Shown: piece by piece, positions 13,024 to 34,010 of the stretch
Layout: each line of letters opens with the position of its first letter
Numbering within the stretch: position 1 is the stretch's first letter
From: an uncultured delta proteobacterium
GTDB taxonomy: Bacteria > Desulfobacterota > Binatia > Binatales > Binataceae
Length of the DNA: 64,000 nt
Reading direction: 5' to 3'
Assembly: GCA_963711565.1 (NCBI GenBank)
Contig: CAVQEQ010000004.1
Span: forward strand, 212,961-276,960
Notes under the pieces: model-generated
Databases searched by the model: none
The model's input: only the letters and a program-made list of their open reading frames with translations
What the model was told of the DNA's origin: nothing
Translations under genes and position numbers: made by a program

Positions 13024-14787
13024 ATGGCCAACGCCTCAAACGATCAGGCCGCCGCTGCGCTCGTTGCGCCCGATTGCCGCGGGATGAACTTTTATCGCAT
13101 CGACCGCGGATTGCGCGACCTGCTCGATCTCCATATGGAGCCGCGGTTGCGCGCCGCGATGGAGCCGCATCTCGATCGCCTCGGCCAGCTCGCGGGCGGC
13201 CGGCTCGACGAGCTTGCGGAAATCGCCGACAAGCATCCGCCGGTGCTCCATTCGCGCGATCGTTTCGGCCGCGACGAGGACTGGGTCGAGTTCCATCCGG
13301 CGTATCGCGAGATGGAGCGGATTGCTTTCGGCGAATTCGGGCTGCATGCGATGGCGCATCGGCCCGGCGTGCTCGGATGGCCCGAGCCGCTCCCGTACAT
13401 CGCGAAGTACGCGTTCCAGTATCTGTTCGTGCAGGCCGAGTTCGGCCTGATGTGCCCGATCAGCGTGACCGACACCGGCGCGGTGCTGGTCGAGAACTAC
13501 GGCAGCGCCGATCTCAAGTCGCGCTACCTCGGCCGCATGCTCTCGCAGAACATGGACGGGATTTTCAAGGGCGCGCAATACATGACCGAGCGCGCCGGCG
13601 GCTCCGATCTCGGCAACAGCGCCGTCGTCGCGAAGCGCGACGGCGATTTCTGGCGGCTCTACGGCGACAAGTGGTTTTGCTCGGCGGTTGACGGCGACGT
13701 CGTACTACTACTCGCTCGGCCCGACGGTGCGCCCAGCGGCTCGAAAGGGCTCGGGCTGTTCCTGATGCCGCGGCGATTGGAAAACGGCGAGCGCAACAGT
13801 TATCGAATCGCGCGGCTCAAGGATAAATTCGGCACGCGGTCGATGGCGAGCGGCGAGGTCGTGCTCGAGGGCGCAATCGCGTTCCAAATCGGCGCGCTCG
13901 ATCGCGGCCTGCGCCAGATGATGGACATGGTGAATCTCAGCCGCATGTCGCACGGCGCGCGCGCCGCCGGCATGATGCGCCGATGCCTCAACGAGTCGCT
14001 CGCGGTCGCGCGTCATCGCGCGGCGTTCGGCAAACCGATCATCGAGCATCCGCTGCTGCGGCGCCAGTTGATGAAACTGATGGTGCCGACCGAGCAGGCG
14101 CTGTCGGTTTTCACTTACGACGCGACGATGATGGACCGGGCGCGCGGCGGTGACGCGGAAGCCGAGCGTGTGCTGCGCATCCTGACCGCGGTGCTGAAGT
14201 TCCGGGCGTGCCGCGACAACATCCGCGTCGCGACGGGCGCGATGGAGGTGCGCGGCGGCAACGGCTACATCGAGGATTGGGTGAACTCGCGGCTCATCCG
14301 CGACGCGCATATCGGCGTGCTGTGGGAGGGCACCAGTAACATCAACGCGCTCGACGTGATCAATCGCGCAGTCGCCAAATCCGGCGGCCACGAGACGCTC
14401 GCGCGCGCGCTGAAAGCCAAGCTCCAGGCCGCAACCGCCGCTCCCGCTGCCTTCCGCGCAGAGATCGCGCAGCTAATCGATCGCGCCGTTACATTCGCGG
14501 GCGAAGTCGCATCCAAGCCGAAGAACGAACGACTGGCGCGCGTGGCGACCGACGCGCTCTACAATGTAGCGAGCGCGGCGCTGATGACGTGGGAAGGTGC
14601 GACGGCAGGCGCCAACGGCCACGACGCTCGCCGCATGATCCTCGCGCGCATGGTCGTCGAGCATCGCCTGCGCCCGGAAGATCCTTTGGCGATAGCAGAG
14701 TCAGACTGGGAAGAAGACGCGATCATCGCGCTACTCGACCCGAGCGCGGTATCCATCGAAAAAGCTGCGCGACTTGTGTCTGGCTGA
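13024..14787 (+). CDS. aidB: AidB-like acyl-CoA dehydrogenase family protein
   Basis: The length (about 590 aa) and the N-terminal extension fit AidB. The acyl-CoA dehydrogenase middle and C-terminal domains are present (YMTERAGGSDLG, GDKWFCS, EVRGGNGYIEDW). The likely start is MANASNDQ at 13024. Confidence 0.7.
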   Translation: MANASNDQAAAALVAPDCRGMNFYRIDRGLRDLLDLHMEPRLRAAMEPHLDRLGQLAGGRLDELAEIADKHPPVLHSRDRFGRDEDWVEFHPAYREMERIAFGEFGLHAMAHRPGVLGWPEPLPYIAKYAFQYLFVQAEFGLMCPISVTDTGAVLVENYGSADLKSRYLGRMLSQNMDGIFKGAQYMTERAGGSDLGNSAVVAKRDGDFWRLYGDKWFCSAVDGDVVLLLARPDGAPSGSKGLGLFLMPRRLENGERNSYRIARLKDKFGTRSMASGEVVLEGAIAFQIGALDRGLRQMMDMVNLSRMSHGARAAGMMRRCLNESLAVARHRAAFGKPIIEHPLLRRQLMKLMVPTEQALSVFTYDATMMDRARGGDAEAERVLRILTAVLKFRACRDNIRVATGAMEVRGGNGYIEDWVNSRLIRDAHIGVLWEGTSNINALDVINRAVAKSGGHETLARALKAKLQAATAAPAAFRAEIAQLIDRAVTFAGEVASKPKNERLARVATDALYNVASAALMTWEGATAGANGHDARRMILARMVVEHRLRPEDPLAIAESDWEEDAIIALLDPSAVSIEKAARLVSG

Positions 14788-25989: not shown

Positions 25990-26045
25990 GTCCTAATCCT
26001 CCTAATCCGGTTCCCCTTGCAGGGGAAGCGATTAGGTTCCCTGGG
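25990..26045. repeat. Family-2 element, site 1: TTAGGG-like motif plus hairpin
   Basis: cctaatcctcctaatcc, then TTCCCCT-tgc-AGGGGAA, then gcgattaggttcc. Confidence 0.5.
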
Positions 26046-26199
26046 TACTGGCTGAATTCAGTTGATGGGCTTACTGTCGGCGTGAGGTGCGTCGCGCGCC
26101 GCTTGACGACGATCCGCAATGAAAAGTAGTTAATTGAATGACATCGCATCGAAAAATCCCCAGGACTACGGCAAGGAAATTGTGAAAGCAACCACGATC

Positions 26200-26553
26200 A
26201 TGTTCCTGGCGCTCGCGATTACGATTTCGGGGTGCAGCGACGCCGCGGAAGACAATCAAGCGATGCAGGCTGCTGCGGAAAATAATCAGGCGCGCAGCGA
26301 CATGATACAGGCGAAAGACGCTTACACTAAATGCCTACAAGAAAACAGCGCGGAGACGCAGAAGTGCGCTGGATTCAAGGAGGCGTACGAGGTCAACTTA
26401 CAGGCATATCGAGCGACTTCGGGGGAGGGGGGAGGCGCGAGCGTCATTTTTAACGGACCTACCGTGAACTCAAACCAACCTTCAAAACCTCAACAATTGG
26501 AAGAACAGCGTCAGCAGATCCAGCAATTGAAAGAACAACAGGAAACTGAATAG
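26200..26553 (+). CDS. Lipoprotein, Gln/Glu-rich, hypothetical
   Basis: MFLALAITISGCS is a signal with a lipobox (ITISGC). The C-terminus is a QQ-rich coiled-coil. Local GC is lower. Confidence 0.45.
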   Translation: MFLALAITISGCSDAAEDNQAMQAAAENNQARSDMIQAKDAYTKCLQENSAETQKCAGFKEAYEVNLQAYRATSGEGGGASVIFNGPTVNSNQPSKPQQLEEQRQQIQQLKEQQETE

Positions 26554-26623
26554 CTCAGACTGTCCTACCGTTCCTTGCCGCGCAGTACGCAACGCCGCCA
26601 CTTTCCAGTATCTTGATTCTATC

Positions 26624-27562
26624 GTGCCGCATTCCGAATCTACCGACATCCCGCCAGCTGGCGTTCTCGCCCTCGACGGCCGCATCGTCGTCCGCGTGAC
26701 CGGCGACGATCGCGCGTCGTTTTTCCACGGGATGTGCACTGCCGACGTGAAGGGCGCGCGCTTCGGTTCAATCCTGCCGGCGCTTTTTCTCACCGAGCAT
26801 GCGCACGTAATCGCCGATGCGTTCATCTGGGTGACGCCTGCCGCGCTCCTGCTCGACATCGACGCCGACGCATGGACGCGCACGCGCGCGCATCTCGAAA
26901 AATTACTCGTCGCCGACGATGTGGAATTCGAAGACGCCGCAGACCTCGCCGTCATCAACGTCGAAGGACCTGCCGCCCTCGATGCAACCGCCAAATCGCC
27001 GCGCACGCCCTGGAGCTTCATCAAGGCCGGCAGCTCGCTGGTCGGCAACCTGCCACGCTACGGCGGCTCCGCGGTATCTGTCATCGCTCCGCGCGATTCG
27101 ATTGATTCGACTATCGCCGCAATTCTCGCGAAGGTGCCGCATTCGCGCCGCAGCGATCTCGCGATGCTCGAGACCATTCGCATCGAAAACGGCATCGCCC
27201 GCGTCGGCGTCGATACCACCGACAAAACCATCGCGCTCGAAGCGCGCCTCAATCGCTCGATCTCGTTCAACAAGGGATGCTACCTCGGCCAGGAAACCAT
27301 CGAGCGCGCGACCGCCCGCGGCGGTTTGAAAAAACGGATGTTCGGACTTAAGTTCAATACTGCGGACGTGCCGAACGCCGGTGCGGTCCTCAGTCTGGAC
27401 GGCAAGGAAGTCGGCCGCGTGAGCAGCAGTGTGCGTTCGCCGCGCTTCGGCGCGATCGGGCTTGCGATCCTGCATCACAGTGCATGGACGCTCGGCATCG
27501 AGCTGAAAGTGGGCGAGGGCGGCGGTGCAATCGTAACCGAGTTGCCGTTCGCGCAGAGTTGA
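26624..27562 (+). CDS. ygfZ: YgfZ-like folate-binding protein (aminomethyltransferase/GcvT fold)
   Basis: KGCYLGQETIERATARG is the KGCYxGQE signature of the YgfZ/GcvT family. Confidence 0.65.
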   Translation: MPHSESTDIPPAGVLALDGRIVVRVTGDDRASFFHGMCTADVKGARFGSILPALFLTEHAHVIADAFIWVTPAALLLDIDADAWTRTRAHLEKLLVADDVEFEDAADLAVINVEGPAALDATAKSPRTPWSFIKAGSSLVGNLPRYGGSAVSVIAPRDSIDSTIAAILAKVPHSRRSDLAMLETIRIENGIARVGVDTTDKTIALEARLNRSISFNKGCYLGQETIERATARGGLKKRMFGLKFNTADVPNAGAVLSLDGKEVGRVSSSVRSPRFGAIGLAILHHSAWTLGIELKVGEGGGAIVTELPFAQS

Positions 27563-27600
27563 AGTGATACTTTGATTTTATTTTCAAGGGAGTTCAGAAG

Positions 27601-27744
27601 ATGGCTAACGTGCTCGGCAAGCGTTACATGTGCGAACACTGCGGCACCGAGGTGCTCTGCAACAAGGCCGGCACCGGCGGCCTCGAATGTTGCGACGTCG
27701 AGATGAAGATCAAGGAAGCCAAACCGCTTCCGAGTTCCGACTAG
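27601..27744 (+). CDS. Desulforedoxin-like Cys4 small metal-binding protein (47 aa, unannotated)
   Basis: MANVLGKRYMCEHCGTEVLCNKAGTGGLECCDVEM matches the desulforedoxin pattern M-A-N-x5-Y-x-C-x2-CG ... L-x-CC-x3-M. A GGGAG Shine-Dalgarno is upstream. It lies 9 nt upstream of the amidohydrolase gene. Confidence 0.6.
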   Translation: MANVLGKRYMCEHCGTEVLCNKAGTGGLECCDVEMKIKEAKPLPSSD

Positions 27745-27753
27745 GACGACTCG

Positions 27754-29313
27754 GTGGTAAGCGCGCCCGGGAAAGCAGACCTGGTTCTGCACGAGGGTCT
27801 CGTCCTCGGCCACCCCGGCAGCGACTCGGTTGCAATCTCGCGCGGCTCGATTGCCGCGCACGGTGCATTCGCTGATCTGAAACCGCTGGTCGGTCCGCGA
27901 ACTCATCTGATCAAGCTCGCCGGCCGCACCGTCGCCCCCGGCTTCATCGATTCGCATCTCCATTTTCGCGAGGCCGCCGCCGCTGCCACCGGAATTTCCG
28001 TGCAGCGATGCCGCACTGTCGGCGATCTGCTGGCCGACCTGCGGCTTGCCGCAGGCAAGACTCCGCCCGGCAACTGGATGCGCGCGTTCGGATGCGACGA
28101 AGCGTTGCTGCTGGACAGGCGCGGACCCACGCGCGCCGAGCTCGACGAATCGTTACCCAAGAATCCCCTGCGTCTCCGCCATCAGACCCTCCACGCCACG
28201 TGGCTGAATTCGCGCGCGATCGCACTGCTGGGCCTCGAGGCTCCCGGCTTCACTCCGCCGCTCGGCGCCAACATGGTCCGCGACGCTGCGGGTAAGCTCA
28301 CCGGCCTTCTGGTCGGGATGGAGACGTGGCTGTCGGATCATCTACCGCCCGTGACCGCGGCGGAAGCGGAATCGCGCGCGCGCATCATGAGCCGCGAGAT
28401 GGCTGCGGCCGGAGTCACCGCGTTTACCGATGCCACCACGCGCAACGGTCCCGTCGAAGTCGAACAGTTCGCCAAGCTCGCGCAATCGAACGCGATATGC
28501 CAGCGCGTCGGGGTGATGATTGGCGGCCAGCATCTCGACTCCGCCGATCGATGCGAGCAGCTTGCTCGCGCCGCCGGGATCGCTCTTGCCGGCGCCAAGT
28601 TCATGCCCGGTTATCAGTACGACCCCGCCGGCCTGTCGCGGCCCGTCCTCCGCGCGCTCGAGCGCGGATTCGATTGCGCGTTCCACGTCACGGAAATCGA
28701 AGAGCTGGAAGAGTCGATTGCCGCTATCGAAGCTGCCAAAGCGCAGTTTTCCGGCGCACACGAGATCCCGCGCTTTCGGATCGAGCACGGCGGGATCATC
28801 ACGCCCAACTACATCGACCGGCTGATGGCCGCCGGCGTGTGGGTCGTCACCAATCCCGGCTTCATCCACTTCCGCGGTCCCAAGTACGCCGCCGAGCCCG
28901 GCCTCGTCGCTCATCTGTATCGCGCGCGCAGTCTCAAAGATGCCAATGTCCACCTGGTCGGCGCGACCGACGCGCCGGTGACGCCCGCGAAGCCGCTCGC
29001 TGCGATTGCCGCCGCCGTTTCGCGCACCTCGATCGACGGCGTCGAGCTCGCACCCGCCGAGGCGCTCTCGATGCATGACGCCTTCGCGCTCTTCACATCC
29101 GAAGCGGCGCGCCTCGCCCGTCTCGAGGCCGGCGTTATCGAGCCCGATCACCTGGCCGATCTGATCGTGCTGCCGCGCGACCCGTTCTCGCTGAATGCCG
29201 CCGATCTGATGAACCTCGTCGTCAACATAACCATCGTCGGCGGCCGTGTCGTTTACGAGCGCGGCCGTCCCGCCATCGCCAGCAGCGACAGCGCCGACCT
29301 GCGCTCCACCTGA
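27754..29313 (+). CDS. Metal-dependent amidohydrolase (amidohydrolase-3 family)
   Basis: GFIDSHLHF is the HxH metal site. A C-terminal VGATDAP...D motif is present. The length is 519 aa. Confidence 0.8.
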   Translation: MVSAPGKADLVLHEGLVLGHPGSDSVAISRGSIAAHGAFADLKPLVGPRTHLIKLAGRTVAPGFIDSHLHFREAAAAATGISVQRCRTVGDLLADLRLAAGKTPPGNWMRAFGCDEALLLDRRGPTRAELDESLPKNPLRLRHQTLHATWLNSRAIALLGLEAPGFTPPLGANMVRDAAGKLTGLLVGMETWLSDHLPPVTAAEAESRARIMSREMAAAGVTAFTDATTRNGPVEVEQFAKLAQSNAICQRVGVMIGGQHLDSADRCEQLARAAGIALAGAKFMPGYQYDPAGLSRPVLRALERGFDCAFHVTEIEELEESIAAIEAAKAQFSGAHEIPRFRIEHGGIITPNYIDRLMAAGVWVVTNPGFIHFRGPKYAAEPGLVAHLYRARSLKDANVHLVGATDAPVTPAKPLAAIAAAVSRTSIDGVELAPAEALSMHDAFALFTSEAARLARLEAGVIEPDHLADLIVLPRDPFSLNAADLMNLVVNITIVGGRVVYERGRPAIASSDSADLRST

Positions 29314-29326
29314 TGGCTTCGTGCTG

Positions 29327-30073
29327 ATGCAATCGAAGGCGAACGCTTCCAGCGCAGTGCTCTACGCCAGGCGCGGTCCCGTCGCATGGGTCACGCTCAA
29401 TCGTCCCGCGCAATTCAACGCGTACAACGTGGCGATGCGCGACGACCTCTTTCAAATCCTCGCCGCCATCCACGACGACCGCGACGTGCGCGCGATGGTC
29501 CTGCGCGGCGCCGGCCAGGCCTTTTCGACCGGCGGCGATCTCGTCGAGTTCGGGATGGCGCCGTCGCCAATCGTCGCGCGATGGGTCCGCTTTCGCCGCG
29601 ATGTGTGGGGGATGCTCCGCGCGCTGCCGATTCCGACCATCGCCGCTATTCACGGTTACACAGTAGGCGGCGGACTCGAGATGGCGCTGTTGTGCGACCT
29701 CGCAATCGCCGCCGACGACACCCGCCTGTCCCTGCCCGAGACCGGCGCCGGCATGATTCCCGGCGTCGCCGGCACGCAGACCGCCGCGCGCCGCCTTGGC
29801 CTCGGTCGCGCGCTGGACCTTTGCCTCACGGGCCGTTGGATTGACGCCCAAGACGCGTTACTTGTAGGTATGGTCGCCGAAGTGGTCCCGCTGGCTGATC
29901 TGGATCGCCGCGCGCTGACGATCGCCCGCGCGTTTGCACGCGTCAGTCGCGAGCGTTCCGCGCTACTCAAGCTGGCGGTCTGGGGAGGCCTCGATTTGCC
30001 GCTGCGACAAGGACTCGAACTCGAACGCCGGCTCTGGAGGCGTTTACCCGCTGGGAGGAATCGCGCGCAGTGA
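29327..30073 (+). CDS. Enoyl-CoA hydratase/isomerase (crotonase) family protein
   Basis: VAWVTLNRPAQFNA...LRGAGQAFSTGGDL...GYTVGGGLEMALLCD is a canonical crotonase fold. Confidence 0.8.
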   Translation: MQSKANASSAVLYARRGPVAWVTLNRPAQFNAYNVAMRDDLFQILAAIHDDRDVRAMVLRGAGQAFSTGGDLVEFGMAPSPIVARWVRFRRDVWGMLRALPIPTIAAIHGYTVGGGLEMALLCDLAIAADDTRLSLPETGAGMIPGVAGTQTAARRLGLGRALDLCLTGRWIDAQDALLVGMVAEVVPLADLDRRALTIARAFARVSRERSALLKLAVWGGLDLPLRQGLELERRLWRRLPAGRNRAQ

Positions 30074-31617
30074 ACACGGTTAACTTCGTCACGATCCCTG
30101 CTTCGATCGTGCCCGACCAGGAAATCCTGGTCTTCGGCTCGCGACGCCTTACCTATGCGGATCTGAACGACCAGGTCGCCTGCCTGTGCGCGGTCTTCAA
30201 GCAGTTCGGCCTCGCGCATGGCGACGTCATCGCCGTCCTCGACACCAACTCCGACCTCTACATCGAATGCTACTACGCCGCCGCCAAGGCCGGTCTCACG
30301 TTCCTGCCGCTGAACTATCGCGCCAAGGATGCCGAGCTCGAATACATGATCAACACCGCCGACGCCAAGGTGTTGCTCGTCGGCGATCGCTATCTCGAAT
30401 TGATCGCGAAGATTCAGCCGCGGCTGCGCGCGAGCAAAGTCGTCGCGCTTGGCGACGGCGCCCGCGGATTGCCGCGCCTCGCCGATCTCATCGCCAAGGC
30501 CGAGCCCGACGAGGCCGAAGCTGAAGTCGAAGACGAGGACATTTCCATCCTCATGTACACCAGCGGCACCACCTCTCTACCGAAAGGCGTGCAGCTTCGC
30601 TTCCGCGATTTCGCCGCCTACGTCACCGCCAACGTCGAGATGGCCGACGGCACCGACCGCGGCGTCGCGCTGGTGTGCGTGCCGTTTTACCACATCGCCG
30701 GAACCACCGCGTACATGACCACCATCTGGACCGGCCGCAAACTGGTCATCATGCCGCAGTTCGACGCCAAGGCTTGGCTCGATCTCGTCGCGCGCGAGCA
30801 CGTAACCCACGCCTTCGTCGTACCCACGATGATGAAACAGATCATCGACGAGCCCGCATTCGCGAAAACCGATCTCTCCACGCTGACCAACCTCGCCTAC
30901 GGCGGCGCGGCGATGCCGGTGCAGGTGATTCGCCGCGCGATCGAGGTCTTCCCGAAAAAAGTCGGCTTCGTGAACGCCTACGGCCAGACCGAGACTACGT
31001 CATCGCTGACCGTGCTCGGTCCCGACGATCATCGAATCGAAGGCACGCCTGAGGAGGTCGAGCTAAAGCTCAAGCGCCTGAACTCGATCGGCAAGCCGCT
31101 GCCCAACGTCGAGATTCGCGTCCGCGACGAGGACGGCAAGTTCCTCCCGCACGGCCAGGTGGGCGAAATCATTATCCGCACCCCGCGCATCATGAAGGGC
31201 TACGCCGGCCGCGACGACGACGCGCGATTGCCCGATGGATGGCGCGCGACCGGCGACCTCGGATGGCTCGACGACGACGGCTACGTCTTCTTCGCCGGGC
31301 GCAAGGACGACATGATCATCCGCGGCGGCGAAAATATAGCGCCCGCCGAAATCGAAACGGTCCTCATGAGCCATCCGGCGGTCGACGAATGCGCCGTTAT
31401 CGGCGTGCCGTCCGTCGAATGGGGGCAAACCGTCAAGGCCTTCGTCGTCCCGCGCACGGGAATGAAGGTGGCCGAGTCCGAGCTCGAGGAATTCTGCCGC
31501 TCGCGTCTGGCGAGCTTCAAGCGTCCCGAGCGCATCGAGTTCATCGACGCGCTGCCGAAAAATCCGCTCGGCAAAATCCTGCGCAAAGATCTGCGCGCGC
31601 CCGCTGGAGGCGTCTGA
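30070..31617 (+). CDS. AMP-dependent acyl-CoA synthetase/ligase
   Basis: YTSGTTSLPKGV is the AMP-binding motif. YGQTETT and the C-terminal PKNPLGKILRKDL are present. Confidence 0.85.
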   Translation: MNTVNFVTIPASIVPDQEILVFGSRRLTYADLNDQVACLCAVFKQFGLAHGDVIAVLDTNSDLYIECYYAAAKAGLTFLPLNYRAKDAELEYMINTADAKVLLVGDRYLELIAKIQPRLRASKVVALGDGARGLPRLADLIAKAEPDEAEAEVEDEDISILMYTSGTTSLPKGVQLRFRDFAAYVTANVEMADGTDRGVALVCVPFYHIAGTTAYMTTIWTGRKLVIMPQFDAKAWLDLVAREHVTHAFVVPTMMKQIIDEPAFAKTDLSTLTNLAYGGAAMPVQVIRRAIEVFPKKVGFVNAYGQTETTSSLTVLGPDDHRIEGTPEEVELKLKRLNSIGKPLPNVEIRVRDEDGKFLPHGQVGEIIIRTPRIMKGYAGRDDDARLPDGWRATGDLGWLDDDGYVFFAGRKDDMIIRGGENIAPAEIETVLMSHPAVDECAVIGVPSVEWGQTVKAFVVPRTGMKVAESELEEFCRSRLASFKRPERIEFIDALPKNPLGKILRKDLRAPAGGV

Positions 31618-31649
31618 CGCCGCGGCCCGCTAAAAAATCCCGACCGCGC

Positions 31650-32402
31650 CGCGCCGCGCGCTCCACGCCCGCCGGCGTAATCGAAGTTTCCTTCGCCAGC
31701 GGATGCGTTAACGCTACCCTTCGATTCCCCGGCGCGCGCGCGATTGTCACGCCCGCGATGGCCGTCCGCTTGCTCGAGCTGTTCGAGCACGTTGAGGACG
31801 ACGACGCCGCCCACATGCTCGCGATCACGGGCGCCGGTTCCGCGTTCTGCATCGGCTTGGACGACGCCGTCGATCCGCGCCTCGTCGAATCGCTCGCCGT
31901 GCTCTCGAAGCCCACCGTCGCGATCATCAACGGCGACGCCTTCGATGAAGGATTGGAACTCGCGATGGCCGCCGACATTCGCGTCGCGATTTCATCCGCT
32001 CGTTTCGCGATCACGCAAATCAAACGCGGCACGATGCCCCATTTCGGCGCGACTCAGCGCCTCCCGCGCCTTATCGGCGCGGCCAACGCTATCCGCCTGA
32101 TGCTGACCGGGACGGCCCTGGGAGCCGACGACGCGATGCGCACGGGACTCGTCACTTATCTTGCTGACAGGCCCGCCGAACTCGCCGCTACCAGCGGCCG
32201 CGTCGCCGAGGCTATTCTGAGCCGCGCGCCGCTCGCCGCGCGCCTGGTCAAGGACGCGGTGCTCAAGGGTTACGACATGACTTTGGACCAGGGCATCAGG
32301 CTTGAGGAGGATCTATACGCCCTGCTACAAACGACTTCCGACCGCGCCGAAGGCGTCCGCGCTTTTCTCGAGAAGCGCAAACCGCTGTTCAGGGGCGCGT
32401 GA
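31650..32402 (+). CDS. Second enoyl-CoA hydratase/isomerase family protein; the 5' end is uncertain
   Basis: VIEVSFASGCVNATLRF...ITGAGSAFCIGLD...INGDAFDEGLELAMAADIRV. There is no ATG, GTG or TTG between the ligase stop and the conserved first beta-strand. Confidence 0.65.
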   Translation, partial: RAARSTPAGVIEVSFASGCVNATLRFPGARAIVTPAMAVRLLELFEHVEDDDAAHMLAITGAGSAFCIGLDDAVDPRLVESLAVLSKPTVAIINGDAFDEGLELAMAADIRVAISSARFAITQIKRGTMPHFGATQRLPRLIGAANAIRLMLTGTALGADDAMRTGLVTYLADRPAELAATSGRVAEAILSRAPLAARLVKDAVLKGYDMTLDQGIRLEEDLYALLQTTSDRAEGVRAFLEKRKPLFRGA

Positions 32403-32457
32403 ACTCTCGGCGCAAAATTTTAAGCGACAACGCGACTGAAAGGATCAGGATCCACGA

Positions 32458-32577
32458 ATGGCAAATCAGCTCGGCAAAGTTTATATCTGCGGCAACTGCA
32501 AATCGCAGGTCATCGTCACCAAGGCCGGCAACGGCCAGCTCAAGTGTTGCGGCGTTCCGATGGAACAAAAAAAGTAA
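32458..32577 (+). CDS. Second desulforedoxin-like Cys4 small protein (39 aa, unannotated)
   Basis: MANQLGKVYICGNCKSQVIVTKAGNGQLKCCGVPMEQKK is a paralogue of the ORF at 27601. Confidence 0.55.
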   Translation: MANQLGKVYICGNCKSQVIVTKAGNGQLKCCGVPMEQKK

Positions 32578-32631
32578 CGACCGCGCTCTTTCGTTCGGGC
32601 GCTGTCGCGACAACGCGATGAGGGGTCCACG

Positions 32632-32871
32632 ATGCTCTACTGGATTATAGTCGGAATAATCGCAGGCTGGTTGGCCGGGAAGCTGGTGCGCGGCGCGGGC
32701 TTCGGCTTGATCGGCGATCTCATCCTCGGCCTCGTCGGTGGCCTTGTCGGCGGATGGATCTTCGGCGCACTCGGTATTGCGGGACCCAACGGCCTGATCG
32801 GCGGCATCATCATCGCTACCGTCGGCGCCGTCATCCTGGTCTGGATCTCGCATATGATTCGCGAGGCCTGA
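32632..32871 (+). CDS. GlsB/YeaQ/YmgE family transglycosylase-associated stress membrane protein
   Basis: IVGIIAGWLAGKLVRGAGFGLIGDLILGLVGGLVGGWIFG is the family signature. Confidence 0.75.
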   Translation: MLYWIIVGIIAGWLAGKLVRGAGFGLIGDLILGLVGGLVGGWIFGALGIAGPNGLIGGIIIATVGAVILVWISHMIREA

Positions 32872-32890
32872 GCAACCCCGCGCGCCGCGC

Positions 32891-33280
32891 TCACCCGCTA
32901 GCGCGGATGCGCAGCTCTTCGGCCTGCTTGCGAATCGGCTCCGGCAGCCTCACTTCCTGCGCGTCGATCCAGTTGCTCACGAGCCGGTAGAACTCGCGCG
33001 CCGGTTCGTAGAACACGTGGATCACGACGTCGTCGTAGTCGAGCACCACCCAGTGCGCATGGTGCATCCCCTCGACCGACAGTGCCCGTTGCCCGGCCTT
33101 GCCCAGCGCCTCCTCGATTCCGCGCGCAATCGCCTGCACCTGCACGTCGGAGCGCCCGGTCGCCACCAGGAAATAATCCGCCACCGATTTCAGATGCTCG
33201 GCTTCGAGCACGACCAGGTCGTAGGCCTTTTTCTCCAGCGCCGCTTCGGCCGCGACGAATGCCTTCTTCAGCGCCGTCAA
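32891..33280 (-). CDS. rsfS: Ribosomal silencing factor RsfS (Iojap)
   Basis: A 129-aa ORF. DYFLVATGRSDVQVQAI...HAHWVVLDYDDVVIHVF is present. Confidence 0.85.
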   Translation of the reverse strand: MTALKKAFVAAEAALEKKAYDLVVLEAEHLKSVADYFLVATGRSDVQVQAIARGIEEALGKAGQRALSVEGMHHAHWVVLDYDDVVIHVFYEPAREFYRLVSNWIDAQEVRLPEPIRKQAEELRIRASG

Positions 33281-33371
33281 GAAATCTGACCGCGATTGGC
33301 CGGCGGGTTCGCCGTTTGTCGATGGTTCGATCGGGATTGAAATGAACGCGAGATTTTAAGCAGAGAAATCC

Positions 33372-34010
33372 TCAATACAGCGCGTGGCGCTGGATATAAT
33401 CGACGACATCGATCGGCATCAGGTACCGGACCGATTCACCGTGTTGCAGTTTGCCGCGAATTTCAGTCGCTGAAATGGGGAAGAACGTGGTGTCGACGAA
33501 AGATAGCGTTTGTCCGCTCGAATGCACGTAGTGATCGTCTGCCTGAGTGTAGCCAAACCGTTTGAGCGCGGCAACTGAAATTCGCGGCGGACCGTCTTGC
33601 CCTTCGGTTAACCTTGTATGAACGGCGAAATTGCACAGCCGCGCCAGTTCATCGGGCTCCTTCCACGATTCCAGCTCGGCAAACTGATCCGCGCCCATCA
33701 GCAGGTACAGCGTCGCCGGCTGCCTCAAGGTAGCCAGGAAGTAGCGCACCGTCTCTATCGTGTACGATCGCCCGGCGCGCTGAATCTCCACGTCGGAGGT
33801 CATGAAATGCCGGTTGCCCTTGGTCGCCAGCCGCACCATCGCCAGCCGATGCACCGCCGGGGCCAATTCGCCTTCCGCCTTATGCGGCGGCGATGCGGCC
33901 GGGATGAAATACACGAGGTCCAGTTGGAGCGCCTCGCGAACCTCCTCGGCCGCGCGCAAATGCCCGAGATGAATCGGATTGAAACTGCCGCCGAACAATC
34001 CTACCCGCAT
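33372..34010 (-). CDS. nadD: Nicotinate-nucleotide adenylyltransferase
   Basis: GLFGGSFNPIHLGHL is the (H/T)xGH motif, in the conserved position after proA. Confidence 0.85.
   Translation of the reverse strand: MRVGLFGGSFNPIHLGHLRAAEEVREALQLDLVYFIPAASPPHKAEGELAPAVHRLAMVRLATKGNRHFMTSDVEIQRAGRSYTIETVRYFLATLRQPATLYLLMGADQFAELESWKEPDELARLCNFAVHTRLTEGQDGPPRISVAALKRFGYTQADDHYVHSSGQTLSFVDTTFFPISATEIRGKLQHGESVRYLMPIDVVDYIQRHALY

Follow-up and report, generated by a model that had tools for sequence, protein, structure and literature searches.

Two very small genes of an uncultured delta proteobacterium (Binatia; Binataceae) encode what is apparently a widespread and undescribed small-protein module built on the desulforedoxin (Dx) fold. 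Both lie in a stretch of 64,000 nucleotides (nt) from contig CAVQEQ010000004.1 of assembly GCA_963711565.1 (positions 212,961 to 276,960 of the forward strand), which we call the window, and there they bracket a run of genes for an amidohydrolase, two crotonases and an AMP-forming acyl-coenzyme A (acyl-CoA) ligase. The upstream gene is mini1 and the downstream gene is mini2; their products represent two subfamilies, type B and type A, respectively. Outside the Binataceae the two types are encoded as an adjacent pair or as one fused protein, most constantly beside a CoA-activating enzyme, and the tie to acyl-CoA ligase and crotonase clusters is kept after the metal site has been lost. The reading that we favor, at a probability of about 0.45, is that mini2 (A) and mini1 (B) would form a heterodimeric, non-catalytic accessory of a conserved acyl-CoA ligase pathway, with a metal in a structural role where one is present. 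The mechanism is what we infer from sequences and predicted structures.

A first-pass annotation, made from the sequence of the window, had described the two open reading frames (27601-27744 and 32458-32577) as unannotated paralogues. Both were found at exactly these coordinates, and each has the Shine-Dalgarno sequence ascribed to it (AAGGGAG 8 nt 5' of mini1, AGGA 7 nt 5' of mini2). Close homologues fall into 98 clusters for mini1 and 26 for mini2 (the query for the latter being the 39-amino-acid (aa) peptide plus one upstream codon), from Candidatus Binataceae metagenome-assembled genomes (MAGs) and from soil or peat metagenomes. Across the Binataceae relatives the median pairwise ratio of nonsynonymous to synonymous substitution rates is 0.10 for mini1 and for mini2 alike; both are real genes under strong purifying selection. 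A scan of one genome per species gave 457 matches, of which the best 80 loci are all from Binataceae or Binatia MAGs, and these were combined with eight loci from an exact protein look-up into a synteny set of 88 sequences. Of these, 74 carry the block (YgfZ, mini1, amidohydrolase, crotonase, ligase, crotonase, mini2) and the remainder are mostly incomplete contigs, so the peptides are retained in the orthologous operons of related genomes. In the deepest lineage sampled (L005-L008), mini1 and mini2 are 79% and 66% identical to the window proteins, and YgfZ and the amidohydrolase 34-36%. One Binatia MAG (L087) lacks the amidohydrolase and keeps all other genes of the block.

The edges of the block differ in their constancy. 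YgfZ lies directly upstream of mini1 in every Binataceae locus. The gene downstream of mini2 varies: it is Transgly_assoc in most Binataceae, a BolA-glutaredoxin pair in L005-L008 and CoA_transf_3 in L001, and the Transgly_assoc (GlsB/YeaQ) gene of the window is probably outside the module. In L005-L008 the BolA and glutaredoxin genes (13216-13878) and YgfZ make three Fe-S trafficking genes that flank the block in one clade. A partnership of mini1 with the upstream YgfZ in Fe-S repair was considered and rejected as a general explanation, since YgfZ, BolA and glutaredoxin are confined to Binatia and absent from all non-Binatia loci examined.

The family to which the two peptides belong is evident from their metal ligands and fold. 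Cys ligands stand at positions 11, 14, 30 and 31 in both, forming a C-x2-C ... C-C motif in which 19 residues lead from the first to the third ligand, as in the Dx motif; in the alignment the four columns are invariant among 24 close relatives. The hidden Markov model (HMM) check suggested by the first-pass annotation gave a divided answer. Against PF06397 (Desulfoferrod_N, gathering score 23), mini2 scores 28.7 bits, above the threshold, and mini1 21.4 bits (E=2e-4), just below it; against NCBIfam TIGR00319 (cutoff 36.05), both fall under the cutoff (26.4 for mini2, 16.0 for mini1). When a joint profile of the A and B families was compared with the PDB, the only meaningful matches were desulfoferrodoxin (Dfx; 1vzg, E=1.8e-5) and Dx (1cfw, E=7.8e-5). 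The AlphaFold model of mini1 (predicted local distance difference test score, pLDDT, 78) superimposes on Dx 1dxg with a root-mean-square deviation of 1.1 Å, and on the centre-I domains of Dfx (2ji1, 1vzg, 1dfx) with 1.2-1.3 Å, all at a Foldseek probability of 1.00, which bears out the Dx fold that had been proposed. A fused A-B relative is predicted as a single compact unit (pLDDT 90.8, predicted template-modelling score 0.76) in which only the tail is less confident, and one of its halves matches 1dxg at 0.9 Å across all 36 residues. Identity to Dfx centre I is 39-42%. Motif and fold place both peptides with Dx and Dfx centre I, whereas the curated HMM thresholds admit mini2 alone. With an HMM match and conservation in orthologous operons both found, the original observation stands.

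Other small metal-binding or accessory families were tried and set aside. Rubredoxins have a second C-P-x-C-G knuckle that is absent here, adjacent C-C taking its place, and no rubredoxin HMM matches either peptide. No LysW/ArgW model matches the window peptides, no ATP-grasp LysX-like gene is present in any Binataceae block, and LysW models give sub-threshold noise only with one fused relative (E=0.009-0.08). MbtH-like proteins were rejected for want of any Pfam or NCBIfam match, and DUF35 for want of an HMM match. Readings as a precursor of a ribosomally made, modified peptide (RiPP) or as a toxin were set aside, conservation extending over the full peptide and the fold being that of Dx. A separate observation concerns an 80-aa, probably truncated protein (P0187), in which a mini1-like domain of the VLCNK type is followed by the beginning of a superoxide-reductase domain (PF01880; TIGR00320, 81 bits); type-B-like domains are thus also present in true desulfoferrodoxins.

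The peptides mini1 and mini2, first described as paralogues, are 51% identical, and the alignment places them in two distinct subfamilies and not as simple duplicates. Type A, like mini2 (which ends ...PMEQKK), ends ...CCGxPMEQKK and has no tail. Type B, like mini1, has a fifth conserved Cys (VLC[N/T]K), an LGKRY motif and a C-terminal extension ending KPLPSSD; in mini1 these include Cys20 (27658-27660) and the tail KEAKPLPSSD. The C-terminal Asp is the sole invariant column among 72 diverse type-B sequences, in which G6, K7, R8, the Cys ligands, G24 and M35 are conserved at 90% or more. Cys20, which is not a Dx ligand, is conserved at 90% or more in type B. It is retained in many variants that have lost ligands (Chloroflexi fusions and several Rhodococcus fusions) and is replaced by Val or Ala in L184, L186, L188 and L190. 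Seven proteins (P0172, P0195, P0207, P0214, P0224, P0266 and P0267) are of type B with an extra N-terminal domain of ~60 aa (...LGNRPDxW...G...YDK..L.AE.E.G...) that has no Pfam match.

The two subfamilies travel together. An exhaustive profile search of 1.84 billion cluster representatives returned 1287 matches at E<=1e-3 and 258 at E<=1e-10, and among the best 150 representative clusters some 30 are fusions of 80-120 aa, in which a linker joins type A to a type B with its tail. Metagenome contigs were searched with a non-Binatia type-B profile and 80 loci were kept; of the 75 with room for it, 73 have a type-A gene as the immediate upstream neighbour of B, on the same strand and with a median gap of ~40 nt. 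MAGs of Deltaproteobacteria (L096), Acidobacteria (L181), Dehalococcoidia (L180) and Chloroflexi (L182) likewise carry A followed by B, as do L092/93 and L097/98. The bracketing of an operon by two copies, which had been taken for the arrangement itself, is therefore specific to Binataceae; elsewhere the form is an adjacent pair or a fusion. Desulforedoxin is a homodimer. Since A and B are co-encoded or fused, and a fused member is predicted to be compact, we infer that A and B form a heterodimer, pairing as Dx does with itself.

Annotation of these genes is uneven, and the claim that they are unannotated holds in part. Public homologues are called hypothetical protein, desulfoferrodoxin-like iron-binding protein or desulforedoxin, but the type-A gene is often missed by gene callers; a 39-aa type-A gene is left uncalled by annotation pipelines at L092/L093 (6831-6947), L097 (6397-6513) and L098 (711-827). 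Counts of A/B pairs taken from annotation alone are accordingly too low. One type-A gene stands alone: in L009 (8001-8120), on a 704-kb contig, a gene 77% identical to mini2 has no type B within 8 kb, and its neighbours are a pentapeptide-repeat gene and a DJ-1/PfpI gene.

We define the A/B module as type A, type B with a [KR]x[LI]PS[SA]D-COOH tail and a CoA-activating enzyme in one neighbourhood; in the window, A, B with its KPLPSSD tail and the ligase are found in one co-directional block. Of the metagenome loci, 54 extend for 600 nt or more upstream of A; in 38 of these the adjacent upstream gene is an orthologue of the window ligase, in 7 it encodes the B subunit of a class-I CoA-transferase, and in 1 it encodes a family-III CoA-transferase. 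The ligase orthologues average 51% identity to the window ligase in 44 metagenome loci, and two crotonases usually lie upstream of them. Orthologues of each of the two window crotonases occur in other lineages, at 42-53% identity (45-53% for crotonase-1 in L097 and L182). The position of the ligase can be taken by enzymes of other families, namely an ADP-forming (succinyl-CoA-synthetase-like) ligase upstream of A-B in L096 of the Deltaproteobacteria and a class-I CoA-transferase in L097 and in L181, the latter from Acidobacteria, so that three non-homologous routes to a CoA thioester occur at the same place. The gene directly downstream of B is often one for a hydrolase: among 65 metagenome loci it is HDAC-like in 12, MBL in 6 and alpha/beta hydrolase in 5. 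Genes for a TPR protein, an NMO-family flavoenzyme and family-III CoA-transferases also recur downstream. The link to the CoA-ligase, crotonase and amidohydrolase set, noted first in the window, is thus real and reaches far beyond the Binataceae. The gene families remain constant while their order and strand vary among phyla, which makes coincidence unlikely.

The most constant neighbour of A/B is the CoA-activating enzyme, not the amidohydrolase. Ten of the metagenome loci have a homologue of the window Amidohydro_3 on the opposite strand, where the cluster has its far end (30-32% identity, E=1e-59 to 1e-68). In Chloroflexi L182 the order is ECH-CoAT3-PIN-ECH-ligase-A-B-Amidohydro_3, with the ligase 52% and Amidohydro_3 34% identical to their window counterparts, and the stop of B abuts the start of Amidohydro_3. 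This is the same B-amidohydrolase junction as in the window, so the Binataceae order can be read as a cyclic permutation, in which a B-amidohydrolase block would have moved in front of crotonase-ligase-crotonase-A. The amidohydrolase was rejected as the primary specific partner: it recurs often, but is missing from L087, L181 and the actinobacterial loci.

Two further contexts deserve mention. In one metagenome locus, L106 (2212-4765), the run crotonase-crotonase-ligase-A-B follows directly on two HGD-D genes (2-hydroxyacyl-CoA dehydratase D-component / benzoyl-CoA-reductase-like). In Chloroflexi-type loci L090, L091, L094, L095, L099 and L092/L093, the fused or paired A/B is convergent to lexA and near rpsT, relA and hisS; no CoA-metabolism genes are present within 7 kb of A/B in these lexA-type contexts, which constitute a second, housekeeping-like setting.

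The Actinomycetota separate the ligase association from the metal. The PLSDB plasmids, searched by tblastn with a generic type-B query, gave 12 records (Rhodococcus 9, Streptomyces 2, Mycobacterium 1). In 8 of the 9 records inspected, R. gordoniae being the exception, a fused A-B gene (a "hypothetical protein" of 98-103 aa) lies 2-60 nt from an ANL acyl-CoA ligase gene, on the same strand and on either side of it, among genes for acyl-CoA dehydrogenases, thiolase/DUF35 pairs, CaiB/BaiF transferases and crotonases. The ligases adjacent to A/B are 36-40% identical to the window ligase; a non-adjacent paralogue in the same locus is 29% identical. These fusions (~100 aa) contain 2-4 Cys in total, with a complete Cys4 site in neither half, yet they retain LGKRY, TKxGxG and KPLPS(S/A)D-COOH. 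Fusions without the Cys residues match no family model. Chloroflexi fusions are likewise Cys-depleted, and across other lineages the fourth type-B ligand is C, H, D or N. In the Binataceae and the 80 metagenome loci all Cys ligands are intact. The association with the ligase outlasts the loss of the metal site, and the residues kept family-wide are not ligands; electron transfer is therefore unlikely as the core function. The redox role first suggested for the two peptides, delivery of electrons to a metallo-amidohydrolase or its protection, is not supported, as ligase-adjacent fusions have no Cys4 site. The amidohydrolase itself can be dispensed with in some loci (L087, L181 and those of the Actinomycetota).

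A model for the A/B module can now be put forward. A and B would be the subunits of one heterodimer, each with one Cys4 metal site (Fe or Zn) in this organism, and the metal would serve structurally. The pathway that they accompany would convert a carboxylic acid to its CoA thioester and pass it to two crotonase-family enzymes, often with an Amidohydro_3 hydrolase in addition. The heterodimer may bind an enzyme of this pathway, the ANL acyl-CoA ligase being the likeliest, by means of the LGKRY surface and of the flexible, invariant tail of B; in function it may resemble the MbtH-like proteins that partner adenylating enzymes, or the zinc-ribbon subunits (DUF35/BbsA) of thiolases. A more tentative proposal, which we hold slightly less probable than the accessory role itself, is that a subfamily of acyl-CoA ligases would depend on A/B as an obligatory partner subunit of a class not recognised before.

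Several observations weigh against this model. The replacement of the ligase by non-homologous CoA-transferases or by an ADP-forming ligase means that specific ligase binding is not the whole story. Some A-B genes have no CoA gene nearby, namely those of the Chloroflexi lexA-type fusions, Dehalococcoidia L180, L092 and R. gordoniae. Redox genes do occur in the neighbourhood: a gene of the flavin mononucleotide-dependent NMO family follows A-B in 17 (about a third) of the metagenome loci, and in two Rhodococcus loci the gene for the ligase is preceded by one for a ferredoxin. All ligands are strictly kept in the clade of the window and in the metagenome loci, so a role that depends on the metal, perhaps a redox role, is possible there. 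The 80 metagenome loci, being the best matches to one query, are a biased sample.

An alternative, which generalises the role first suggested, is that A/B is an electron carrier, a two-centre Fe(Cys)4 protein of rubredoxin type like the Dx dimer or the two-domain rubredoxin AlkG, which would carry electrons to or from an oxidoreductase of the acyl-CoA pathway or keep a metallo-hydrolase reduced. The closest solved relatives, at the 39-42% identity to Dfx centre I given above, are iron proteins; the adjacent Cys-Cys ligand pair specific to Dx is present, and the ligands are strictly conserved in the Binataceae and the metagenome loci. The NMO-family flavoenzyme also follows A-B in L097 and L181, fdxA lies within the clusters of Rhodococcus DK17 and GD02, and P0187 fuses a mini1-like domain to a superoxide-reductase domain. 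We nevertheless consider electron transfer unlikely: the conserved core (ligase or transferase plus two crotonases) has no redox enzyme, nor has the Binataceae block, the Cys4 sites are gone from ligase-adjacent actinobacterial fusions and the Chloroflexi fusions are depleted of Cys, the fourth ligand is variable, and the LGKRY and tail conserved throughout the family are not metal ligands. A role as a small metal- or thiol-dependent modulator of the activity or expression of the pathway, for example one that titrates a regulator, or inhibits the ligase or hydrolase until a signal arrives, is quite improbable. GntR or TetR regulators are encoded in several actinobacterial clusters, the extra Cys20 of type B is conserved, and A/B is found away from CoA genes beside lexA in Chloroflexi; but none of the regulators recurs constantly beside A/B, DNA-binding features were not found, and a tight operonic position among enzyme genes is more typical of a subunit.

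The invariant tail invites a different proposal, in which the flexible ...PLPSSD-COOH of B would itself serve as substrate: its terminal Asp would be activated or loaded by the adenylate-forming ligase encoded next to it, an intermediate would be built or processed while attached, as on LysW, and one of the adjacent hydrolases (Amidohydro_3, HDAC-like, MBL or alpha/beta) would release it, a LysW- or ThiS-like logic on a Dx fold with an ANL enzyme. The sole invariant column of type B is that Asp, in a tail of low pLDDT; a small metal-ribbon globule with an acidic tail matches the LysW architecture; adjacency to an adenylating enzyme is the most constant feature; and the gene 3' of B is often a hydrolase, Amidohydro_3 in the Binataceae and L182 and HDAC-like, MBL or alpha/beta in the metagenome loci. 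However, CoA-transferases or an ADP-forming CoA ligase replace the ligase in at least 10 loci, and activation of a protein C-terminus by these is implausible. CoA thioesters are the substrates of the crotonases and family-III CoA-transferases that lie alongside, an ATP-grasp or E1-like enzyme is absent, and the LysW models detect noise only. An HDAC-like gene beside an acyl-CoA synthetase has, moreover, a known alternative reading as AcuC-type deacetylation of the synthetase. We regard loading of the tail as very improbable. Least probable of all, in our estimate, is that A/B has no functional link to these genes and is a general-purpose metalloprotein for oxidative stress or for iron or Fe-S handling, its adjacency to CoA genes being inherited or due to chance. 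YgfZ before mini1 in all Binataceae, BolA and glutaredoxin after mini2 in L005-L008, and the housekeeping contexts of several lineages would fit it. Against it, the same families accompany A/B in Binatia, Chloroflexota, Acidobacteriota, Deltaproteobacteria MAGs and Actinomycetota, in gene orders and on strands that differ and that inherited synteny does not explain, and YgfZ, BolA and glutaredoxin do not occur outside Binatia.

The gene layout of the window is given in Table 1. As the first-pass annotation had it, 9 nt separate the stop of mini1 from the GTG of the amidohydrolase gene; mini2 lies 55 nt 3' of crotonase-2 and 54 nt 5' of the Transgly_assoc gene. The 4-nt overlaps reported for the enzyme genes hold for crotonase-1 and the ligase (GTGA, 30070-30073), but for the ligase and crotonase-2 only with a non-canonical CTG start (CTGA, 31614-31617). 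The most likely start of crotonase-1 is ATG 29327, 13 nt past the stop of the amidohydrolase gene; the mechanical start of that reading frame, GTG 29246, overlaps the amidohydrolase. For crotonase-2, no in-frame ATG, GTG or TTG was found between the ligase stop (31615-31617) and ATG 31758, and the in-frame peptide upstream of 31758 is kept in relatives and matches a normal crotonase N-terminus. GTCTGAC around CTG 31614 is kept in L011, L013, L014 and L020. Crotonase-2 thus probably starts at CTG 31614, the sole candidate, overlapping the ligase stop as CTGA, which suggests a CTG start with termination-reinitiation coupling at this junction; a frameshift fusion is less likely. A scan of 26000-33600 found no promoter-like sites, and terminator-like sites there were as many as in shuffled sequence, so the scan speaks neither for nor against co-transcription. 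The closest solved relatives of the ligase are feruloyl-CoA / fatty-acyl-CoA synthetases (8wev, 8weu) and FadD13; those of the amidohydrolase in the PDB are uncharacterised hydrolases only.

Table 1. Genes of the A/B block and its flanks, in the order in which they lie in the window
Feature	Position	Strand	Description	Sequence
YgfZ/CAF17-like folate-binding protein, GCV_T fold	26624..27562	+	Pfam GCV_T + GCV_T_C; NCBIfam TIGR03317 78 bits, cutoff 49	
mini1, type-B desulforedoxin-fold mini-protein	27601..27744	+	47 aa, ATG start	MANVLGKRYMCEHCGTEVLCNKAGTGGLECCDVEMKIKEAKPLPSSD
Amidohydro_3 metal-dependent hydrolase, 519 aa, GTG start	27754..29313	+	Pfam PF07969, E=9e-65	
crotonase / enoyl-CoA hydratase family protein 1	29327..30073	+	Pfam ECH_1, E=1.3e-48	
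AMP-forming acyl-CoA ligase, ANL superfamily, 515 aa, GTG start	30070..31617	+	Pfam AMP-binding + AMP-binding_C; NCBIfam PRK06187 479 bits	
crotonase / enoyl-CoA hydratase family protein 2	31614..32402	+	Pfam ECH_1, E=6.4e-39	
mini2, type-A desulforedoxin-fold mini-protein	32458..32577	+	39 aa, ATG start	MANQLGKVYICGNCKSQVIVTKAGNGQLKCCGVPMEQKK
Transgly_assoc (GlsB/YeaQ-type) small membrane protein	32632..32871	+	Pfam PF04226	

Desulforedoxin has been treated as a curiosity of sulfate reducers, and its role is still unclear. The A/B pair places its fold, as a two-subunit or fused module, in at least five phyla (Binatia, Chloroflexota, Acidobacteriota, Deltaproteobacteria-type MAGs and Actinomycetota). 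A full-text search of the literature found no description of the module; most subscription papers lie outside the coverage of that search, which is not proof of absence. Were A/B to be a partner of ANL acyl-CoA ligases, it would be a new kind of accessory protein for a very large catabolic and biocatalytic superfamily, and could explain the poor behaviour of some ANL ligases when expressed alone. The presence of A/B on plasmids of cultivable Rhodococcus, Mycobacterium and Streptomyces makes its role directly testable. The module also matters for annotation, in that a 39-aa gene easily goes uncalled and Cys-less fusions fall outside all family models.

Comparison with known systems locates both the kinship and the analogies of A/B. 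With the Dx of Desulfovibrio gigas (1dxg, 1cfw) it shares the fold of ~36 residues and the C-x2-C ... C-C ligands at the same spacing, and Dx works as a dimer, as we propose for A/B. Dx is, however, a homodimer of one gene product, whereas in A/B two subfamilies have become distinct and are encoded by paired genes or by one fused gene; the fifth Cys, LGKRY and an invariant C-terminal tail of 10 residues are additions of type B, many A/B members have lost the metal ligands, and the context is acyl-CoA metabolism in mostly non-sulfate-reducing lineages. Centre I of desulfoferrodoxin, or 2Fe-superoxide reductase (PF06397; 1dfx, 1vzg, 2ji1), gives the best sequence and structure matches, but neither the window genes nor their neighbours encode a superoxide-reductase domain, and the A/B proteins stand alone, with a partner subunit and a tail.

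The remaining likenesses are of function or architecture. MbtH-like proteins are small, non-catalytic and encoded beside adenylate-forming enzymes, a functional analogy drawn from general knowledge; they have no sequence or fold relation to A/B, bind no metal, and partner the adenylation domains of nonribosomal peptide synthetases, not acyl-CoA ligases. LysW/ArgW resemble A/B in their small Cys4 metal-ribbon globule, in a flexible tail with an invariant acidic end and in having genes for a ligase and for a release hydrolase among their neighbours. The tail of LysW is EDWGE and is loaded by the ATP-grasp ligase LysX, whereas the neighbours of A/B act on CoA thioesters. Subunits of the DUF35 / BbsA / ChsH2 type belong to another fold family (zinc ribbon plus OB fold) and partner thiolases rather than ligases. 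They are, like A and B, small Cys4 ribbons; they act as structural subunits in beta-oxidation-like operons, and they co-occur with A/B in L096 and in the R. opacus, M. branderi and Streptomyces clusters.

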